From an uncultured Thermoplasmatales archaeon (GTDB lineage Archaea > Thermoplasmatota > E2 > DHVEG-1), in the NCBI GenBank assembly GCA_964638175.1, contig CAZWZY010000001.1:62257-126256 (forward strand): a DNA stretch of 64,000 nucleotides. Reading direction: 5' to 3'. The notes below the pieces were generated by a model. It was not told where the DNA came from and made no database searches. It saw only the letters and a program-made list of their open reading frames with translations. The translations under genes were made by a program, and so were the position numbers. This document shows, piece after piece, positions 7,146-63,907 of this stretch. Position 1 is the first letter of the stretch. Each line of letters starts with the position of its first letter.

Positions 7146-7691
7146 ATGGCAGAAATTACCATTGAAAATATAGTCGCTTCTGCACAACTTGCAGACAAAT
7201 TGGATATTCAGCAGATAGCAGATGCCATACCCGAATCAAAGTACAATCCTGACAGCTTTCCCGGTCTTGTTCTCCATTTTGAAGAACCGAAGACGGCAAC
7301 CCTACTATTCTCTAGTGGGAAATTTATCTGTACCGGTGCCAAGCGAATGGAAGATGTGGCTATCGCTTTACAAAAGCTCGTTAGTAAAATGCAGGCTATC
7401 GGCATCAGTGTTAAAGAACAACCGAAGATGAAGGTGCAAAATATTGTCGTTTCTGCAAATCTCGGAAAAGAGTTTGAGCTGAATGATGTTGCCAAGGGTC
7501 TCTTACAGCAAAATGTAGAATACGAACCAGAACAATTTCCAGGATTGATTTATCGAATGGATGGTGCTGGTACTGTAATATTGTTATTTAGCTCGGGGAA
7601 ATTAGTATGTACAGGGGCAAAAGCAATAGAAGAAGCAACAGCTGCCGTTGACCTGATGAAGGAAAAGCTAGCATCATTGGGAGTTTTATAA
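7146..7691 (+). CDS. tbp: TATA-box binding protein (paralog 1)
   Basis: Two TBP direct repeats, each with an …FPGL.YR…TALLF.SGK..CTGAK… motif. Confidence 0.95.
   Translation: MAEITIENIVASAQLADKLDIQQIADAIPESKYNPDSFPGLVLHFEEPKTATLLFSSGKFICTGAKRMEDVAIALQKLVSKMQAIGISVKEQPKMKVQNIVVSANLGKEFELNDVAKGLLQQNVEYEPEQFPGLIYRMDGAGTVILLFSSGKLVCTGAKAIEEATAAVDLMKEKLASLGVL
7518..7543 (+). repeat. 26-nt segment (GAATACGAACCAGAACAATTTCCAGG) shared with both halves of the second TBP gene
   Basis: Identical nucleotide string encoding EYEPEQFPG in the C-terminal repeat of TBP1. Confidence 0.8.
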
Positions 7692-7705: not shown

Positions 7706-8257
7706 ATGCCAGAAGTAATTGTAGAAAATATCGTGGCATCAACGTCCTTTTCAGATAAATTGGATTTAGATGTCATAGCGCAATCGCTAGAAGAAGCAGA
7801 ATACGAACCAGAACAATTTCCAGGCCTTGTCTATCGGCTTGACGAACCGAAAACAGCAACCTTGCTCTTTAGAAGTGGAAAGGCAAACTGCACAGGTGCA
7901 AAGAATGTTCAAGATGTGAAAAAAACGGTAGATATTATTGCAGAAAAACTCAGAAAACTTGGTGTAGACGTCTATAAAGATCTCAAGATTGTCATTCAGA
8001 ATATTGTTGCCATTTCTGACCTTGGTACTGAGCTGAATCTGAATGAAGTGGCAATGGGGCTTGGGTTAGAAAATGTTGAATACGAACCGGAACAATTTCC
8101 AGGCCTTGTATACAGAATTAAAGAACCAAAAGTCGCGATGTTGCTCTTTGGTTCTGGAAAAATCGTCTGCACCGGCGCACGAAAAACTGAAGATGTGTCA
8201 CTTGCAGTCGATAAACTCTCAGCAGAACTGAGTTCGTTGGATCTCATTAGGAAGTAA
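7706..8257 (+). CDS. tbp: TATA-box binding protein (paralog 2), in tandem with paralog 1
   Basis: Same two-repeat TBP architecture, roughly half identical to paralog 1. Starts 14 nt after the paralog 1 stop. Confidence 0.95.
   Translation: MPEVIVENIVASTSFSDKLDLDVIAQSLEEAEYEPEQFPGLVYRLDEPKTATLLFRSGKANCTGAKNVQDVKKTVDIIAEKLRKLGVDVYKDLKIVIQNIVAISDLGTELNLNEVAMGLGLENVEYEPEQFPGLVYRIKEPKVAMLLFGSGKIVCTGARKTEDVSLAVDKLSAELSSLDLIRK
7799..7830 (+). repeat. 32-nt intragenic and intergenic TBP repeat copy (TBP2 N-terminal half)
   Basis: gaatacgaaccagaacaatttccaggccttgt. Confidence 0.8.
8078..8109 (+). repeat. 32-nt TBP repeat copy (TBP2 C-terminal half), one mismatch to the 7799-7830 copy
   Basis: gaatacgaaccGgaacaatttccaggccttgt. 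Confidence 0.8.
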
Positions 8258-12594: not shown

Positions 12595-14676
12595 ATGTTT
12601 AAAAAAATCTCAGTAAGCATGCTTTGCGTTATCCTGTGCTGCTCACTTGTTGCCCCCTGGTCAGAAGCAACTACTACAGGGCACATCGACACTGGAGAAA
12701 TAACACTTAGTTATAGGAATGTAACCATATATGCTCCTGCCGTAGGAAAAACAGATACCGGCTATGTTGGTGTTATATCAACAATAACCGTTACTATCCA
12801 AGACAACGGCAGTGGACGGGTGTTTGTTGATACTCTTCCTCTCACTCAAATCGATATGCAGGGTTCTGCACGTCTTGCTGTAAAAGTTGCAAGCACTCTT
12901 GTTGAATGTGACAAGAATTGTAGCGTTGATCCTTCCACCCATGACTATTTCTTTGTGGTCAGAACGTCTGCTCCCATTATTGGTGGACCTTCGGCAGGCG
13001 GAATTATGACAGCGGCTACCATTGCACTGCTTGAAAACTGGCAGATGAGCAATTGGACCATGATGACTGGTATGATTAATCCAGATGGCAGTATTGGACC
13101 AGTTGGGGGCATCTTACAAAAGATAGACGCGGCATATTCTGTGGGTGCAACACGATTTCTAATACCAAAAGGACAGGGGGTGTACATGGAAACGGTAACA
13201 GAACGTGTAGAACAAAATGGATGGACACAGATTATTACCAAACAAGAACCCCGTTATGTCGCTGATTACGCAAAAGACAACTATGGAATGGAGGTTATTG
13301 AAGTCGGAGATATTAACGATGTTATCGGGTATTTCACAGGTTATAACTTTTCCCAAAAAGAAACTAATGGAAATATCACAACAGGAAACTACACCACATC
13401 TATGAAACCTCTTGCCGAAACACTACTTGAAGAGGCAACTGCCATTTATATGAATGCAAGTGATGCATTCAATGCCTCAGATATACCAAATTACTATCCG
13501 TTCCGTTACCAGAGTATTGTCGAAGATTTTCTCGTTGATGCAAAAAACGATCTAGACGGGGCACAATTGTGGCATGAGAGGGAACTATATTACTCAAGTA
13601 CAACCAAATCTTTTATATCGCTCATAAACTCGCGTTTTGTGTTATATGCTGCAGAATATTTTGAGGCAGACAACCGTGATAACTATATCGAGACGTTGCT
13701 GAGCGATGCAATAACCCTTTTTGAAGAGAATAGTGAACTTGCAAAAACAGCACATATTCATGGGGCGATTTCTCTGCAAACCGTCGGTGCCGCACAAAAG
13801 CGTGCCTTTGAAGCAGAAGAGCACATAAATGATGCGAGCGAAAGCTATGAAAATGATGTGTTAGGGGCACTCTATAGTATTGCACGAGCTATTGAACGAA
13901 GTAATAGTGTAAAGTGGTGGATTGGTATTGGCTCTTATTTCAACGATTCGGGGCATATCGATAATACAACATTAGAAAATCTTGCGGTTGAATATATTGA
14001 AGATACCCAACAAGCAGTTGCGTATTCAAGTATTATCCTCCAAGAGATTGGACAAACATCAACGTATCTCTCTGAAGCAGAGACGCTGTTAGAATCAGCA
14101 CGAGATGAACTAGAGAAGGGATATCCTGCTGCTTCGATGTTTGAAGCATTAGAAGCATTGGTAAAGGCAAACCTTGCTCTTGAGTTGGCAACAAGTACAA
14201 GCGAAGAAAAAATTACAAGGGCTCGGGAGAGTGCAAGCGGCAGCATCATTACGAGCAGGACACTAGGGATCGAGCCTGTTCTTGCAGTAAGTTATTATGA
14301 ACTAGCAACAACATACGAAAATGAATCAGATTTCGACGCGGCATTGGTATACTACAAATATAGTGATATTATTGCCGGTGCATTAAGATTTTCAAACTTT
14401 TCCTCAGACTCTTCATCATCTCGCTATGTAGGAATTCCTGAAGTAAATATACCTGCATTCACAACTACAAATCAATGCACGACATATCTTATATACATAG
14501 CAATATTTGGCGGAATTGCTGGTCTTGGCATCGGAATGATTGTTGCTGGTCTTGCAAGTAAAAAACAAGAAGAAAAAATAGTGAAAAAATGGGTACCGCG
14601 AAGTATCAATGACTACTATAATAAAAAACAAAAGAAGACTCGTAGTTTTGAACATCAAGTCCCCCCGAAGTATTGA
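12595..14676 (+). CDS. Secreted, C-terminally membrane-anchored protein with a Lon-type S16 protease domain and no AAA+ module
   Basis: Signal peptide. GGPSAGG…(43 residues)…GGILQK reproduces the Lon Ser-Lys dyad geometry of DGPSAG…GGLKEK. A ~400-aa uncharacterised domain carries many N-x-S/T sequons. One C-terminal TM helix is followed by a basic tail. Confidence 0.6.
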   Translation: MFKKISVSMLCVILCCSLVAPWSEATTTGHIDTGEITLSYRNVTIYAPAVGKTDTGYVGVISTITVTIQDNGSGRVFVDTLPLTQIDMQGSARLAVKVASTLVECDKNCSVDPSTHDYFFVVRTSAPIIGGPSAGGIMTAATIALLENWQMSNWTMMTGMINPDGSIGPVGGILQKIDAAYSVGATRFLIPKGQGVYMETVTERVEQNGWTQIITKQEPRYVADYAKDNYGMEVIEVGDINDVIGYFTGYNFSQKETNGNITTGNYTTSMKPLAETLLEEATAIYMNASDAFNASDIPNYYPFRYQSIVEDFLVDAKNDLDGAQLWHERELYYSSTTKSFISLINSRFVLYAAEYFEADNRDNYIETLLSDAITLFEENSELAKTAHIHGAISLQTVGAAQKRAFEAEEHINDASESYENDVLGALYSIARAIERSNSVKWWIGIGSYFNDSGHIDNTTLENLAVEYIEDTQQAVAYSSIILQEIGQTSTYLSEAETLLESARDELEKGYPAASMFEALEALVKANLALELATSTSEEKITRARESASGSIITSRTLGIEPVLAVSYYELATTYENESDFDAALVYYKYSDIIAGALRFSNFSSDSSSSRYVGIPEVNIPAFTTTNQCTTYLIYIAIFGGIAGLGIGMIVAGLASKKQEEKIVKKWVPRSINDYYNKKQKKTRSFEHQVPPKY

Positions 14677-23213: not shown

Positions 23214-23261
23214 GTGTGAGAAAATATAGGTATTTTAAGTCACGAATTTTTGAATAAATAG

Positions 23262-23347
23262 TGCAGGGGAGGAGATTCGAACTCCCGAACCTCTACAGGA
23301 ACAGATCTTGAGTCTGCCGCCGTTGACCTGGCTTGGCTACCCCTGCA
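23262..23347 (-). tRNA. tRNA-Leu (anticodon CAA), class II with a long variable arm
   Basis: Reverse complement GCAGGGGTAGCCAAGCCAGGTCAACGGCGGCAGACTCAAGATCTGTTCCTGTAGAGGTTCGGGAGTTCGAATCTCCTCCCCTGCA. It has a 7-bp acceptor stem, anticodon stem GCAGA/TCTGT with loop CTCAAGA, a long extra arm and a GTTCGAATC T-loop. Confidence 0.85.
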
Positions 23348-46161: not shown

Positions 46162-46873
46162 GGTGGTTGTCAACTTTAGCACCTCGTTAAGTGATACATG
46201 CTTACAAAACAGTTCAACCAACTCTGCACAGTCCCAATTTTTGTATTATAAGGCCAATTCCGATAAAACCGTTTTATCCTATGTTTCAATAAGAAAAACC
46301 ACTGTTCTATCGGATTGCGCAAACCGAAAGTGATATGTTCCCATTCAACACCCAAACGTTGTAGTGCTGGTTTATACCAAGGACCACCATCAACCAATAT
46401 CTTTGGTTGATTAACACATTTTTTAAGGATATATTTTAAGAAACTATATGCTTCTATAGATGCACGACCACGTGTTACCCATATACCTAGTACTTCCCAG
46501 TTTGTTGTATCTATTGCAGCCCAGACAATATAGAGTTTTCCATTGATCTTTAGTTTGGTTTCATCAACTGCAACAACGGGTCTGTAGGTTTTACCTACTG
46601 AGAATATGGTATCAACTCTGTGATACCATTTACGAATACTTTCATGACTGATATCTTCAAAACCAGAGAGTATATTTTTACATTGTCTAAGAGAAAGCCC
46701 GTAATGATACATCAGTCTTCCAAGTGCTCTGGTCTTTCTTTGTTTTCGGTTTCGTACAAAAATATTTCTAGCTTCTAACAATTCCTCTAAGTGTGATAGC
46801 ATCCCATCCATTTGTTTTCACCAAAAAACAAGGATGGTTGCTATCATATTAAATTCTTAAGTTGACAACCACG
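46162..46873 (-). mobile_element. IS6-family-like insertion sequence (~710 bp) with 14-bp perfect terminal inverted repeats
   Basis: GTGGTTGTCAACTT at 46163-46176 and its reverse complement AAGTTGACAACCAC at 46859-46872 bracket a single DDE transposase gene. Confidence 0.7.
46176..46811 (-). CDS. IS6-family DDE transposase
   Basis: …VAVDETKLKINGKLYIVWAAID…ILVDGGPWY…NPIEQWF… fits the IS6-family D, D and E blocks. Confidence 0.8.
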   Translation of the reverse strand: MDGMLSHLEELLEARNIFVRNRKQRKTRALGRLMYHYGLSLRQCKNILSGFEDISHESIRKWYHRVDTIFSVGKTYRPVVAVDETKLKINGKLYIVWAAIDTTNWEVLGIWVTRGRASIEAYSFLKYILKKCVNQPKILVDGGPWYKPALQRLGVEWEHITFGLRNPIEQWFFLLKHRIKRFYRNWPYNTKIGTVQSWLNCFVSMYHLTRC

Positions 46874-57534: not shown

Positions 57535-58434
57535 TTACAATTCTCCCTCTTCTTTTGTGTCTTCGTCTTCACCTTCTACCTCTGTTTGCCTTTTAAGAAG
57601 ATCCCTCATTTGCTTTTGTATATCAACCTGCTCTTTCTGGAAGGCCACTTGTTCTTGCTGATAAGGAGTAATAACACTTCCCTGCACCATGCTTTCAACC
57701 AACTTCCGAATTTCTTTATAGGGATAGACGCCGTGCAATTCGTAATAACTTCTTGCTCGAGGGGTCTGTACGTCTTTTCCTCCACCAAAAAATCCAAGGA
57801 TCCCTCCTCCTTTTTTCCCTCCAAGTTCTACACCACCACCAGCAAACGATTTATCACTACCGAGTCCAAATCCTGATTGACTGATGGGAATAATAGTGCC
57901 AAAGCTAAAAATTTGGCCAAGAACCCCTTGCTTGGCATTAATATCGGTAATTTTATCATACCGCAACGTCCTTTCTTGTTTTGTGATAATTCCCCCTTTG
58001 AAAATTATCCGAAGATTAGAAATGATGTATTTATGGGAACGTCGATATAGTTCAACAAGTAAAAAACCAATAACAGATACAGCAATGGAAAAGAATGGGA
58101 CAAAGAGTGCTGCTTCAGGCACCCAACTCTGCCAAACCATCAAACCCACGCCACCAAGAAATATGCCAATGAAGAGCAAAAAAATTCTCCATCTAATGGT
58201 AACGAGGGATGCAAAAATACCAACAACAACCAACACAGAACCCCAGACAAGAACAGGTAACCATTCATTTGAAGAAAAGAGCCCTCTAAATTCAGAAAAG
58301 TTAACCAACCATCCAACAAGAACGCCCCACACAATTAAAAAAATACATAAAGCTTGCAACCTCATAAACGACAAAGGATGAGGAGAAAGTACTTTCTCCA
58401 CCTTTTCATCATTCAGCAGATCATCCTGATTCAT
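57535..58434 (-). CDS. Membrane protein with a bacterial-PH (bPH_2, YdbS/YdbT-like) domain
   Basis: …LRIIFKGGIITKQERTLRYDKITDINAKQGVLGQIFSFGTIIPIS… flanked by TM helices, with a Glu-rich C-terminal tail. Confidence 0.55.
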   Translation of the reverse strand: MNQDDLLNDEKVEKVLSPHPLSFMRLQALCIFLIVWGVLVGWLVNFSEFRGLFSSNEWLPVLVWGSVLVVVGIFASLVTIRWRIFLLFIGIFLGGVGLMVWQSWVPEAALFVPFFSIAVSVIGFLLVELYRRSHKYIISNLRIIFKGGIITKQERTLRYDKITDINAKQGVLGQIFSFGTIIPISQSGFGLGSDKSFAGGGVELGGKKGGGILGFFGGGKDVQTPRARSYYELHGVYPYKEIRKLVESMVQGSVITPYQQEQVAFQKEQVDIQKQMRDLLKRQTEVEGEDEDTKEEGEL

Positions 58435-59521
58435 CTGTCTCGTCCTCGATACTTGGTAGTGCCTTCATATCAATTTTAGCTTTAAAGGTATTGCTCTTCT
58501 TCTTTTTCTTTTTTCTTACTAACAGATAGATTACGAGCGTTGTAATTCCTATCATGACGACTAACGATATGCTTTTTTCCCAGGGGGTTTGAATAAAGAG
58601 AAACACCGTTCGCGTAAGAATATAAGAGAGCGGGAGCGTAATATAGGGGAGGAATTTTTTATATCCTTGGATGGTATCGGTGGTTTTTATCAGCAATAAA
58701 AGAAGATGGGTTATTAGTAGAGAGACAATAGAAATAATAGATAGCCACCCAAAGATGGCAAACAGGCCCACATACCATTGTTGACCGAGCGCAAGAGAGA
58801 TGTAAAACAACACGTATGCAAGTAAAAACAAGAGAACGACATACAATGGTCGATGGACAACGTGTGACCAGATGTTCTTTAAATCATAAAGCATGTCCAC
58901 TTTTTCTTGCTTTTTTTCTCCGATATAGCTTGGTCGTATCCCGAGACCAAGAAAGAGGAGCAACAGAAAAAACCCAAGATGCCCCGGATGTAAAAGATCA
59001 ATTGACGCCAAGAACCCAAAAAAATGCTGAGCAAAGATATGCAAACTTCTACCAAACGTAACAATTTGTTCAGTAAAGGTATACTGAAGGTTGATAAGTT
59101 CGGGAGGAGTCGCAATCTCAAAGCCTCTAGGTGTTGAGGCATAGATAGAAGAGATGTAGAGACAAACAAGAAGAAGCGATGCAGGAACAAAAAAAGGACC
59201 TAAGAAAAGAAAAGAATTCGAAATCCACTCAAACACTCCTTTTCTCTCTTTTTTTGGAGAAACTTTACCATAATCCACACTTACATAAAACTCTGAGATG
59301 CCGCTTTTTGTTACCGTATATCCAAGGGCGTGACAAATCGTCTGAAATAAAATTCCAAGAAAATTAGTAAACCGACAGAGCGGTTCGTGTTTTGGCCGAA
59401 TTTTTTCTAGTAGATACTTCTGACTTTCAATAAACAATAGTTGTATAAACCACAGCAACAACACACCCAATATCGGTGCAAGTGGCGCAAATATCAGAAT
59501 ATCTACAAGCGAGCCTGCCAT
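58421..59521 (-). CDS. Polytopic integral membrane protein, unknown function
   Basis: About 9 predicted TM helices and a Lys-rich loop (RKKKKKKS). Overlaps the downstream bPH_2 gene by 14 nt. Confidence 0.4.
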   Translation of the reverse strand: MAGSLVDILIFAPLAPILGVLLLWFIQLLFIESQKYLLEKIRPKHEPLCRFTNFLGILFQTICHALGYTVTKSGISEFYVSVDYGKVSPKKERKGVFEWISNSFLFLGPFFVPASLLLVCLYISSIYASTPRGFEIATPPELINLQYTFTEQIVTFGRSLHIFAQHFFGFLASIDLLHPGHLGFFLLLLFLGLGIRPSYIGEKKQEKVDMLYDLKNIWSHVVHRPLYVVLLFLLAYVLFYISLALGQQWYVGLFAIFGWLSIISIVSLLITHLLLLLIKTTDTIQGYKKFLPYITLPLSYILTRTVFLFIQTPWEKSISLVVMIGITTLVIYLLVRKKKKKKSNTFKAKIDMKALPSIEDETDESG

Positions 59522-62814: not shown

Positions 62815-62863
62815 GATATATTTATAAAAAAAAAGCTATTGTTTTTATATGGTTTTGAGGAGG
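62815..62863 (+). promoter_or_regulatory. TATA-like box and Shine-Dalgarno sequence upstream of the PGF-CTERM protein gene
   Basis: gatatatttataaaa at 62815-62829 and GAGGAGG at 62857-62863, 7 nt before the ATG. Confidence 0.4.
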
Positions 62864-62870
62864 AAAACTT

Positions 62871-63533
62871 ATGAAAGTATGGAAGATAAGCATACTATTT
62901 TTAGGAGCAGTCATTGTATTAGGAATGGCAAACGTTCCCGTTTTGGCAGAATCTGATGAGACAGGGGATTTATGGCATTGGTATTATTCTGAGACTAATT
63001 GGGGCTGGGGCGAAGCCACAGGCCATCCAAATATAGATATTACAGACGTATCCTATTCAAAGAATGGATTGGAAGTTACCCTATCAATGACTGTTGCAGG
63101 GTCCATACAAGACAGCGAAACCATCATATACTACATATACTCAGGAGAGCCTGAAGAAAATTACTACTGGGTGATGTATATGAATGGTGTTTGTACCTGG
63201 GGCGCAACTGGTTTTGGAGGGTATTCAGGCGGGATGATAAACGATCCCCTCTCTGGCGACGGAAAAACACTAACAGCTACTTTCAATCTTACAGAGGATA
63301 CAACAATTTCACCACATGCTAACACTATCGAATATTCACAGTTAGGAGACATTTCAACATCAGAATGGTGGCAGGATTGGTATCCAAACGAATACTTCCA
63401 GGAAGCTCTGAATGGTGATGATGGTACAGAGAATGGAGATGGAACACCACCCACCGGGACACCCGGATTTGAACTGGTAGCATTAGTTATTGCTGCCGCA
63501 ATATCGCTCATTGTATACAAGAGAAGAAGGTAA
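62871..63533 (+). CDS. Secreted acidic Trp/Tyr-rich protein with a PGF-CTERM archaeosortase sorting signal
   Basis: Signal peptide, then …DGTPPTGTPGFELVALVIAAAISLIVYKRRR at the C-terminus: a Thr/Pro-rich linker, a PGF motif, a TM helix and a basic tail. Confidence 0.6.
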   Translation: MKVWKISILFLGAVIVLGMANVPVLAESDETGDLWHWYYSETNWGWGEATGHPNIDITDVSYSKNGLEVTLSMTVAGSIQDSETIIYYIYSGEPEENYYWVMYMNGVCTWGATGFGGYSGGMINDPLSGDGKTLTATFNLTEDTTISPHANTIEYSQLGDISTSEWWQDWYPNEYFQEALNGDDGTENGDGTPPTGTPGFELVALVIAAAISLIVYKRRR

Positions 63534-63547
63534 TTTCTTCTCTATTT

Positions 63548-63907
63548 TTATAGAAGAGGAAGCTCTCCTGTTACTTGATCAATAATGTTAGTAGGTGCGG
63601 GTCCAAGCCCTAATGCTGTTTTAGTGCCTGCTAGAATTTCAGTGTGCCCCGCATCTTCAATTAATGATGTTGAGATTTTCAACATCTCAGCTTTTTCTTT
63701 CAGAGAAAAAAAATCTTCAAGACATTCAACTTTCACTACTGCTTTTTTCGCTCCTTCTGCTTGCCAGTTTTTAAACCATTTAGCATTACTTTTTTTTGTC
63801 GAAAGAGCACAATTGACTGCTGCATGAGCAACCTGAGCTGCCAGTTTTCCAGGAGATAATTTTAAATCACTTCGTGTGACAATGACCATTTTATATTCAA
63901 AATCCAT
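63548..63907 (-). CDS. pth2: Peptidyl-tRNA hydrolase, archaeal PTH2 type
   Basis: …KMVIVTRSDLKLSPGKLAAQVAHAAV… PTH2 signature in a 119-aa protein. Confidence 0.85.
   Translation of the reverse strand: MDFEYKMVIVTRSDLKLSPGKLAAQVAHAAVNCALSTKKSNAKWFKNWQAEGAKKAVVKVECLEDFFSLKEKAEMLKISTSLIEDAGHTEILAGTKTALGLGPAPTNIIDQVTGELPLL

Follow-up and report, generated by a model that had tools for sequence, protein, structure and literature searches.

A putative surface protein with a PGF-type sorting tail and an exchangeable head domain in an uncultured archaeon

Introduction

We analyzed a stretch of 64,000 nucleotides from an uncultured Thermoplasmatales archaeon (assembly GCA_964638175.1, contig CAZWZY010000001.1, positions 62,257 to 126,256 of the forward strand), referred to here as the window. 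The subject of this study is the gene at 62871-63533 (+ strand), whose product had been described in an initial annotation as a small acidic surface protein carrying a PGF-CTERM sorting signal. The window has 40% GC and contains archaeal housekeeping genes, among them those for PTH2, Endo_dU/DUF99, geranylgeranyl reductase (GGR) with its ferredoxin, and CTP synthase. The type of sorting signal carried by this protein is already known. What is new is that its N-terminal head belongs to an unannotated domain family and follows a pattern of cassette replacement in a gene with conserved ends.

Results

The gene and its product

The list of open reading frames (ORFs) gives a complete coding sequence at 62871-63533 (+), with an ATG start and a stop codon at 63531-63533, for a protein of 220 amino acids, in agreement with the initial annotation. 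From N to C terminus the protein is made of a signal peptide, an all-beta domain of ~150 residues, an acidic linker of Asp, Gly and Thr, a TPGFE tail and a final KRRR. It ends in ...GDGTPPTGTPGFELVALVIAAAISLIVYKRRR, exactly the C terminus that had been quoted. An identical protein (100%, P0001) exists in a public collection, on an NCBI contig of 266,507 bp. Upstream, the TATA-like box TTTATAAA (62821-62828, +) lies ~46 nt from the ATG and is the last element of a conserved upstream frame, and a Shine-Dalgarno-like GAGGAGG (62857-62863, +) has the ATG 7 nt downstream. Both signals had been pointed out beforehand, and two syntenic orthologous loci, L005 and L008, have kept a TATA-like box together with a purine-rich ribosome-binding site.

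Residues 1-26 (62871-62948, +) form a predicted Sec-type signal peptide, consisting of MKVWK, a hydrophobic core and a site with VLA before and ESD after the cut. The elements of this peptide are conserved across the family as an MKxWKSS n-region, an h-region and a site with SA before and E(S/T)D after it; AlphaFold2 places a helix at residues 2-19. Reading the signal peptide by eye, we found no twin-arginine motif, lipobox Cys or class III motif. The head domain (residues 27-178; 62949-63404, +) has 5.9% Trp and 8.6% Tyr, compared to 1.0% and 3.05% in the other 58 proteins of the window. The isoelectric point of 4.06 is the lowest in the window and the Trp plus Tyr content the highest, which bears out the acidic, aromatic-rich composition reported earlier. 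The mature domain had been estimated at ~160 residues, close to the 152 of the head followed by a linker of 19.

This linker or stalk, ALNGDDGTENGDGTPPTGT (residues 179-197; 63405-63461, +), is acidic and of low complexity, with a predicted local distance difference test (pLDDT) score of 52-55. It had been called Thr/Pro-rich, which is not correct: it is an acidic segment rich in Asp, Gly, Thr and Asn, and across the family Asp makes up 18%, Gly 16%, Thr 12.5% and Pro 4.8% of the linker. The signature motif P198-G199-F200-E201, with Gly-Thr before it, follows at 63462-63473 (+) and was recognized by family conservation and by its match to the Heimdall-CTERM model. The hydrophobic membrane span ELVALVIAAAISLIVY (63471-63518, +; AlphaFold2 helix at 201-219) covers the 16 residues that separate PGF from the first Lys, namely a Glu and 15 hydrophobic residues, and gives way to the basic stub KRRR (63519-63530, +), predicted to be cytoplasmic and directly followed by the stop codon. 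The C-terminal peptide is ELVALVIAAAISLIVYKRRR. No other ORF in the 64-kb window has such a tail. The several N-x-T sequons first attributed to this protein are in fact a single N-x-S/T sequon, N139-L-T. Sequon positions are not conserved across the family (19 of 53 members in the best column), and the glycosylation proposed from several sequons is wrong for the window protein.

The sorting tail

Two alignments describe the family, one of 53 sequences (A2) and one of 140 representatives (A5). PGF is present in 49 of the 53 homologs and replaced by PGY in one. An ordinary transmembrane anchor in homologs lacking PGF, named beforehand as the finding that would speak against a sorting signal, was not seen. 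Among the 140 representatives, 101 combine PGF with a hydrophobic stretch and a basic tail, the remainder being mostly contig-end fragments, multidomain proteins, or variants with PGY, PAF, SGF or RGF. The geometry of the tail is rigid: in 150 family tails the spacing from PGF to the first Lys or Arg is 16.0 +/- 0.4 residues, and the basic stub has a mean of 4.3 residues, 3.8 of them Lys or Arg, with the stop directly after it. The typical pattern has Gly at -2 and Thr at -1 of P-G-F, Thr preceding PGF in 125 and Glu following it in 142 of these 150 tails. The linker from a W.D..P motif to PGF measures 17-301 residues (median 36) in the family and is rich in Asp, Gly, Thr, Asn and Ser.

In NCBIfam, residues 196-220 of the window protein match Heimdall-CTERM (NF045529, cutoff 24) with 25.4 bits in the full-length protein and 30.3 bits in the tail alone. 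Loki-CTERM (NF033507, cutoff 19.9) gave 17.7 and 22.4 bits, respectively. When nine tails were scanned alone, Heimdall-CTERM was the best model for all nine (range 21.8-32.5) and its cutoff was passed by eight; Loki-CTERM was second-best in every case. The PGF-CTERM model TIGR04126 (cutoff 24.5) was passed by only one of the nine homolog tails, that of P0002 (29.4 bits), with P0005 at 24.3 and P0007 at 22.5 bits. As classified by these curated models, the tail is a 'TPGFE' variant and not a classical PGF-CTERM. Heimdall-CTERM is the best match for a family whose members in reference genomes (L002 and L003, on JAZKSG010000011 and JAWOAW010000108) are labelled Thermoplasmatota. The Asgard name of this model is probably a naming artefact that reflects where the model was originally constructed. 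Pfam returned no match to the window protein. Assignment to the LPXTG sortase substrates (PF00746/TIGR01167) was rejected, with 11.8 bits against 20 and 13.1 bits against 15.9, and no LPXTG motif in the protein.

A near-identical tail is also found on unrelated cargos, which include P0055, P0056 and a 472-residue BNR/sialidase-like protein encoded in L001. In L001 the tails share up to 88% protein identity and only 47-78% identity at third positions of conserved codons. These diverged third positions rule out recent gene conversion as the origin of the likeness and, combined with the conserved peptide, argue for purifying selection on the peptide itself. A rigid tail that is found on many cargos, and whose synonymous sites have diverged, is expected if a common processing enzyme recognizes it, and speaks against a generic anchor. 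It is a true C-terminal sorting signal of three parts, organized around an invariant PGF.

The L001 locus (L001:200-4574; JGI 3300017527, Ga0186782_1210464) contains five consecutive genes on the same strand, all with TPGFE, a hydrophobic stretch and a basic tail. Four are divergent paralogs of the head family, with 27-35% mutual identity, and the fifth encodes the unrelated BNR/sialidase-like protein.

The head domain family

A word-indexed search returned nine relatives of the window protein, and a profile built from these returned 55, all unannotated and mostly of 215-240 residues. With a domain-only profile, an exhaustive HMMER search brought the family to 574 clusters (defined at 50% identity) at E<=1e-3, of which 238 also pass E<=1e-10. 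A metagenome scan with alignment A1 yielded four loci. Among species-representative genomes, the sole relatives were found in two metagenome-assembled genomes (MAGs) titled 'Thermoplasmatota archaeon', and none in Asgard archaea.

Residues D33, D56, I57, Y87, Y99, W167 and D169 are invariant in alignment A2, in which D29, I55, T70, G77, T133, P198, G199, F200 and E201 reach a conservation of 90% or more. In the larger alignment A5, the positions conserved at 90% or more are D29, D33, D56, I57, Y87 and Y99. The conserved residues of the head are thus mainly Asp (D29, D33, D56, D169) and core aromatics (Y87, Y99, W167), and much of the Trp/Tyr excess is particular to the subtype of the window protein. 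The AlphaFold2 model, computed with the 53-sequence alignment, has a mean pLDDT of 87.4 (88-98 in the core blocks). In it, the signal helix is followed by ~12 strands that make up the all-beta domain (residues ~24-171), then by a disordered linker and the C-terminal helix.

For the head, Foldseek against PDB and BFVD found nothing significant, a sequence-profile search of PDB found no match, and neither did NCBIfam, PHROGs or PADLOC; Pfam scans of 31 family members gave nothing consistent. Two candidate relationships were discarded. Six of those 31 members matched SAVED (best E 0.0014), an intracellular sensor domain, below the cutoff, and this match was considered spurious. Kinship to the LapA-type adhesin repeat (PF20579) or BIg domains received an hhalign probability of 3.3%. 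The giant LapA-repeat proteins in the profile list are sums of many weak stretches, and one of them, P0078, is LapA by Pfam.

Throughout the family, the head is always the N-terminal, membrane-distal module. It is found alone on a stalk, as a tandem duplicate (P0011, P0043), or fused to downstream PKD, fn3, cohesin, right-handed beta-helix/NosD or InlB-type repeat partners. These fusions are typical architectures of archaeal surface proteins, and the head represents a large, unannotated, surface-associated domain family. Two other members differ in their C termini: P0116 (609 residues) has a family head at its N terminus and a winged-helix domain (HTH_24/MarR/TrmB-like by Pfam) at its C terminus, and P0128 (418 residues) has the same type of head and, by sequence, a C terminus nearly identical to that of P0116. 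Judging from this arrangement, both could be transmembrane one-component regulators using the head as extracellular sensor.

Genomic slots and exchange of the head

The window gene occupies a position that we call slot A, with Endo_dU, ferredoxin and GGR genes on one side and PTH2 and DUF5749 on the other. This slot is also filled in L005-L007, L008 and L015. Slot B lies between an ArsR-type helix-turn-helix (HTH)/DUF8036 pair and an HhH-GPD-EarA-PurP-...-FEN1 series, and contains family members in L010 and L011 and the expanded five-gene array in L001.

The window and L005 have diverged very unequally along the locus. Six neighbouring genes encode proteins with 79-90% identity, whereas the gene product has 44% identity as a whole, 37% in the head domain and 80% in the tail. 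At the DNA level, identity is 80-90% on the left side through Endo_dU and the promoter (~90% at the TATA box), 30-58% from ~62830 to ~63435, and ~80% on the right side from the start of the sorting-tail coding region through PTH2. The drop takes place within ~30 nt of the boundaries. The variable cassette (62830-63435, +/- 30 nt, + strand) therefore spans the 5' untranslated region with the Shine-Dalgarno sequence, the signal peptide, the head and most of the linker.

Conserved flanks around a divergent center were found in all six pairs of slot-A loci, and four slot-A loci hold four different subtypes. Subtypes also cross between slots: P0029, which is in slot A of L008, shares 59% identity with P0031 in slot B of L010 but only 31-37% with the remaining slot-A heads, and the slot-A gene of L015 is of the subtype sitting in slot B of L001. 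Since synonymous sites are near-random while the flanks remain ~85% identical, the head must have been replaced by recombination and not merely have evolved fast. These sequence comparisons indicate that the head is swapped as a ~600-bp cassette, from the 5' untranslated region to the linker, between otherwise near-identical genomes. The gene has the same GC content as its flanks, which rules out a foreign origin by composition, and no recombinase or silent cassette archive was seen near the gene.

Several observations concern the surroundings of the two slots. Directly before slot B, L010:6907-9890 and L011:8934-9890 encode the ArsR-type HTH protein and the DUF8036 membrane protein, the latter with 5 predicted transmembrane segments in L011. 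A LAGLIDADG_3 homing-endonuclease-like gene is located at 11426-12460 of L010, just past the HhH-GPD gene that adjoins slot B. In the window itself a single mobile-element gene was noticed, at 46176-46811 (-); it encodes an IS240-type DDE transposase domain (PF13610, E 1e-12). About 5 kb downstream of slot A, the L005-L008 loci carry the gene of a very large STT3/AglB oligosaccharyltransferase (L005:15929-19786 and L008:15985-19968; 1285-1327 residues) with extra CarboxypepD_reg-like domains, which by synteny would lie ~5 kb past the right end of the window. In L005 and L008, an unannotated protein of 727-729 residues is encoded between slot A and STT3/AglB.

Other features of the window

PTH2 is convergent with the gene under study and has its stop at 63548. 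A terminator-like hairpin (63520-63553, +) overlaps the stop codon of the gene and is followed by the T-run ATTTTTATAG, a feature obtained by consensus scan only, with 1 found against 0.6 expected. At 58421-59521 (-), a protein of 365 residues with 6-7 predicted transmembrane segments and no Pfam or NCBIfam match is encoded; its gene overlaps that of a bPH_2-domain membrane protein (57535-58434, -), and the pair is syntenic in L005 and L015. Two adjacent paralogs of ~180 residues (7146-7691 and 7706-8257, both +) have N termini that resemble TATA-box-binding protein by eye (MAEITIENIVAS.../MPEVIVENIVAS...). The product of 12595-14676 (+; 693 residues) begins with a hydrophobic leader, carries a Lon_C (S16) protease domain in its N-terminal part and has a hydrophobic segment near residue 628; it resembles a Lon-like protease that is exported or tethered to the membrane and lacks the ATPase domain. 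The sole tRNA gene of the window encodes tRNA-Leu(CAA) (23261-23346, -).

Discussion

We believe the gene probably encodes a cell-surface display protein of this uncultured archaeon, in which a PGF-type sorting tail is combined with an exchangeable beta head. The relatives of the protein in reference genomes likewise make Thermoplasmatota the most likely lineage of the organism. The Sec signal peptide would direct export and be cleaved after VLA26, while the C-terminal hydrophobic span would hold the protein in the membrane with KRRR on the cytoplasmic side. The TPGFE motif, then located at the outer face of the membrane, would be read by a dedicated enzyme, most likely an ArtA-type archaeosortase or a close variant. 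Solely by analogy with the PGF-CTERM substrates of Haloferax volcanii, the span would be removed and the protein covalently anchored to a lipid. The flexible acidic stalk of Asp, Gly and Thr, variable in length, would keep the beta-sandwich head of ~150 residues off the membrane. At the population level, promoter and sorting tail make up a conserved frame in which heads are exchanged among subtypes and between the two slots. An exchanged head in a conserved frame suggests an exposed and diversifying surface determinant, and the most economical reading is that of an adhesin, a recognition module or a virus-exposed coat protein rather than a housekeeping enzyme.

The enzymatic part of this proposal relies on work in other archaea. 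In H. volcanii, ArtA processing takes the C-terminal span off PGF-CTERM substrates in a PGF-dependent manner, and a lipid is attached covalently. The substrates of H. volcanii and methanogens are the only ones for which such cleavage and lipid attachment have been established (PMC6098224). By analogy, we infer that the window protein may undergo ArtA-type cleavage and lipid anchoring. A number of observations weigh against this proposal. The processing, lipidation and surface exposure of the window protein are themselves steps that we infer. TIGR04126 gave no match to it at E<=10, either with the full-length protein or with the tail; the PGF-CTERM signal initially reported thus holds as a tripartite PGF sorting tail on a small acidic surface protein, and not as a match to this model. 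The multi-pass membrane ORFs of the window and the pooled loci were compared to NCBIfam and Pfam models, and no archaeosortase or exosortase (PF09721, TIGR04124) was found among those of the 64 kb covered out of the 266.5-kb contig; the related loci, ~190 kb in all, had none in their Pfam lists or ORFs. The membrane-protein families met instead were UbiA, TctA, SNF, MarC, FtsX, NfeD, HGSNAT and DUF8036, in addition to the family-less 365-residue protein. We know of no sorting enzyme demonstrated for Heimdall-CTERM or Loki-CTERM, and the literature searched contained no paper on either. Finally, the link of the family to the Thermoplasmatota lineage consists of the titles of two MAGs reached through one peptide pattern. 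The same literature held nothing on archaeosortases in Thermoplasmatota, nor on PGF-CTERM in connection with Asgard archaea or Thermoplasmatota. Because only 64 kb of the 266.5-kb contig was covered, not finding the enzyme in the window and ~190 kb of loci is absence of evidence, and it speaks neither for nor against a dependence on ArtA. The same applies to the ArtA-dependent surface proteome that the initial annotation had read from the tail.

The same negative results would be expected of an ordinary bitopic (type I) membrane protein, in which the C-terminal span is a permanent anchor and PGF a conserved juxtamembrane turn. A plain anchor is compatible with the lack of an archaeosortase in the sequence covered and of a TIGR04126 match in the window protein, but it has no need for an invariant PGFE, for so strict a spacing or for chains that end 4 residues past the span in 150 proteins. 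It would also leave unexplained why the tail is nearly unchanged on unrelated cargos despite diverged synonymous sites, and why it passes a curated sorting-signal model. We therefore regard a plain anchor as unlikely. We are slightly more doubtful that the TPGFE tail defines a system distinct from ArtA/PGF-CTERM, that of Heimdall-/Loki-CTERM, with a different enzyme and possibly with release or another type of envelope attachment as outcome. Such a system would account for the ranking of the models on the nine tails, in which Heimdall-CTERM comes first and Loki-CTERM second and TIGR04126 is passed once, and for the near-invariant Glu that sets the signature apart; the literature tying neither model to an enzyme leaves room for it. 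However, the three models overlap strongly (P0002 passes all of them and P0005 falls short of the TIGR04126 cutoff by 24.3 to 24.5 bits), ArtA substrates show the same motif, span and basic stub, and the difference between models may reflect lineage drift in a short hidden Markov model instead of other machinery.

Regarding the head, structure prediction had been suggested with a carbohydrate-binding beta-sandwich in mind. It did give a confident all-beta model, without any CBM9/DOMON match in sequence, profile or structure. That the head is a carbohydrate-binding module of this kind, and the protein a surface lectin or glycan-capture protein, is a tentative idea to which we give little weight. 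As to the origin of the variation, very fast divergence in place under positive selection, instead of cassette replacement, could also produce low identity to syntenic orthologs, and the fact that surface proteins often evolve fast and the equal GC content of gene and flanks are in line with it. We find this very improbable: synonymous sites cannot diverge so far in place as to reach 30-58% identity within ~30 nt of flanks that retain 80-90%, and in-place divergence does not predict that P0029 is closer to a slot-B head than to its slot-A counterparts, or that slot A of L015 holds the subtype of slot B in L001.

A display protein with a PGF-type tail and an exchangeable head shares features with several known systems. 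In the substrates of the PGF-CTERM/ArtA pathway, too, a signal peptide is combined with a low-complexity linker, the invariant PGF, a hydrophobic span and, at the very C terminus, a basic stub, and each genome has many unrelated cargos of this type; the close homolog P0002 even passes TIGR04126. The window protein departs from them by its lack of a match to this model, by the near-invariant Glu after PGF, by an acidic Asp/Gly/Thr linker instead of a Thr/Pro-rich one, and by the absence of a visible ArtA in the loci covered. Heimdall-CTERM and Loki-CTERM are the best and second-best models for all nine tails, yet they are named for Asgard archaea, whereas the reference-genome relatives of the family are Thermoplasmatota MAGs only. 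MAST-domain proteins (TIGR04204) and the substrates of PEP-CTERM/exosortase and LPXTG/sortase similarly combine a small exported domain and a tripartite C-terminal signal with a dedicated membrane enzyme. Their models match the tail alone and weakly, with 12-14 bits for MAST (cutoff 150) and 11.8-15.8 bits, below cutoff, for LPXTG; the head is unrelated. CBM9/DOMON-like and Ig-like beta-sandwiches share with the head only the general architecture, with no sequence, profile or Foldseek match.

Variable cell-surface gene cassettes are known from flexible genomic islands, such as the 'metagenomic islands' of haloarchaea and marine microbes. The locus described here resembles them in its conserved flanks, its sharply bounded divergent surface segment and the different subtypes found per slot in close relatives. 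It differs in that a single head cassette of ~600 bp is exchanged within one small gene, with promoter and tail remaining part of the conserved frame. One could go further and imagine a dedicated surface-variation system of uncultured Thermoplasmatota, in which the promoter/TATA region and the TPGFE tail serve as homology arms for the head cassettes. We think it improbable that the exchange is organized to this degree. If it were, heads could be switched at the population level or even within a lineage, for instance to escape viruses that have the head as their receptor, and the system would amount to a small archaeal counterpart of the surface-antigen cassettes of bacteria, coupled to PGF-type sorting.

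These results do not overturn current knowledge. The protein is of an ordinary kind, and its interesting side is population-genetic. A Heimdallarchaeota-named model that captures proteins outside Asgard would give automatic annotations an Asgard flavour. The head family, with its ~574 clusters and constant membrane-distal position, could reasonably be proposed as a new family entry and taken up in structural or binding studies. The bounded replacement of a cassette amid housekeeping genes provides a simple marker locus for strain-level and virus-host studies of sediment archaea. If the tail is processed as proposed, lipid anchoring of the PGF type would reach into an uncultured lineage of Thermoplasmatota.

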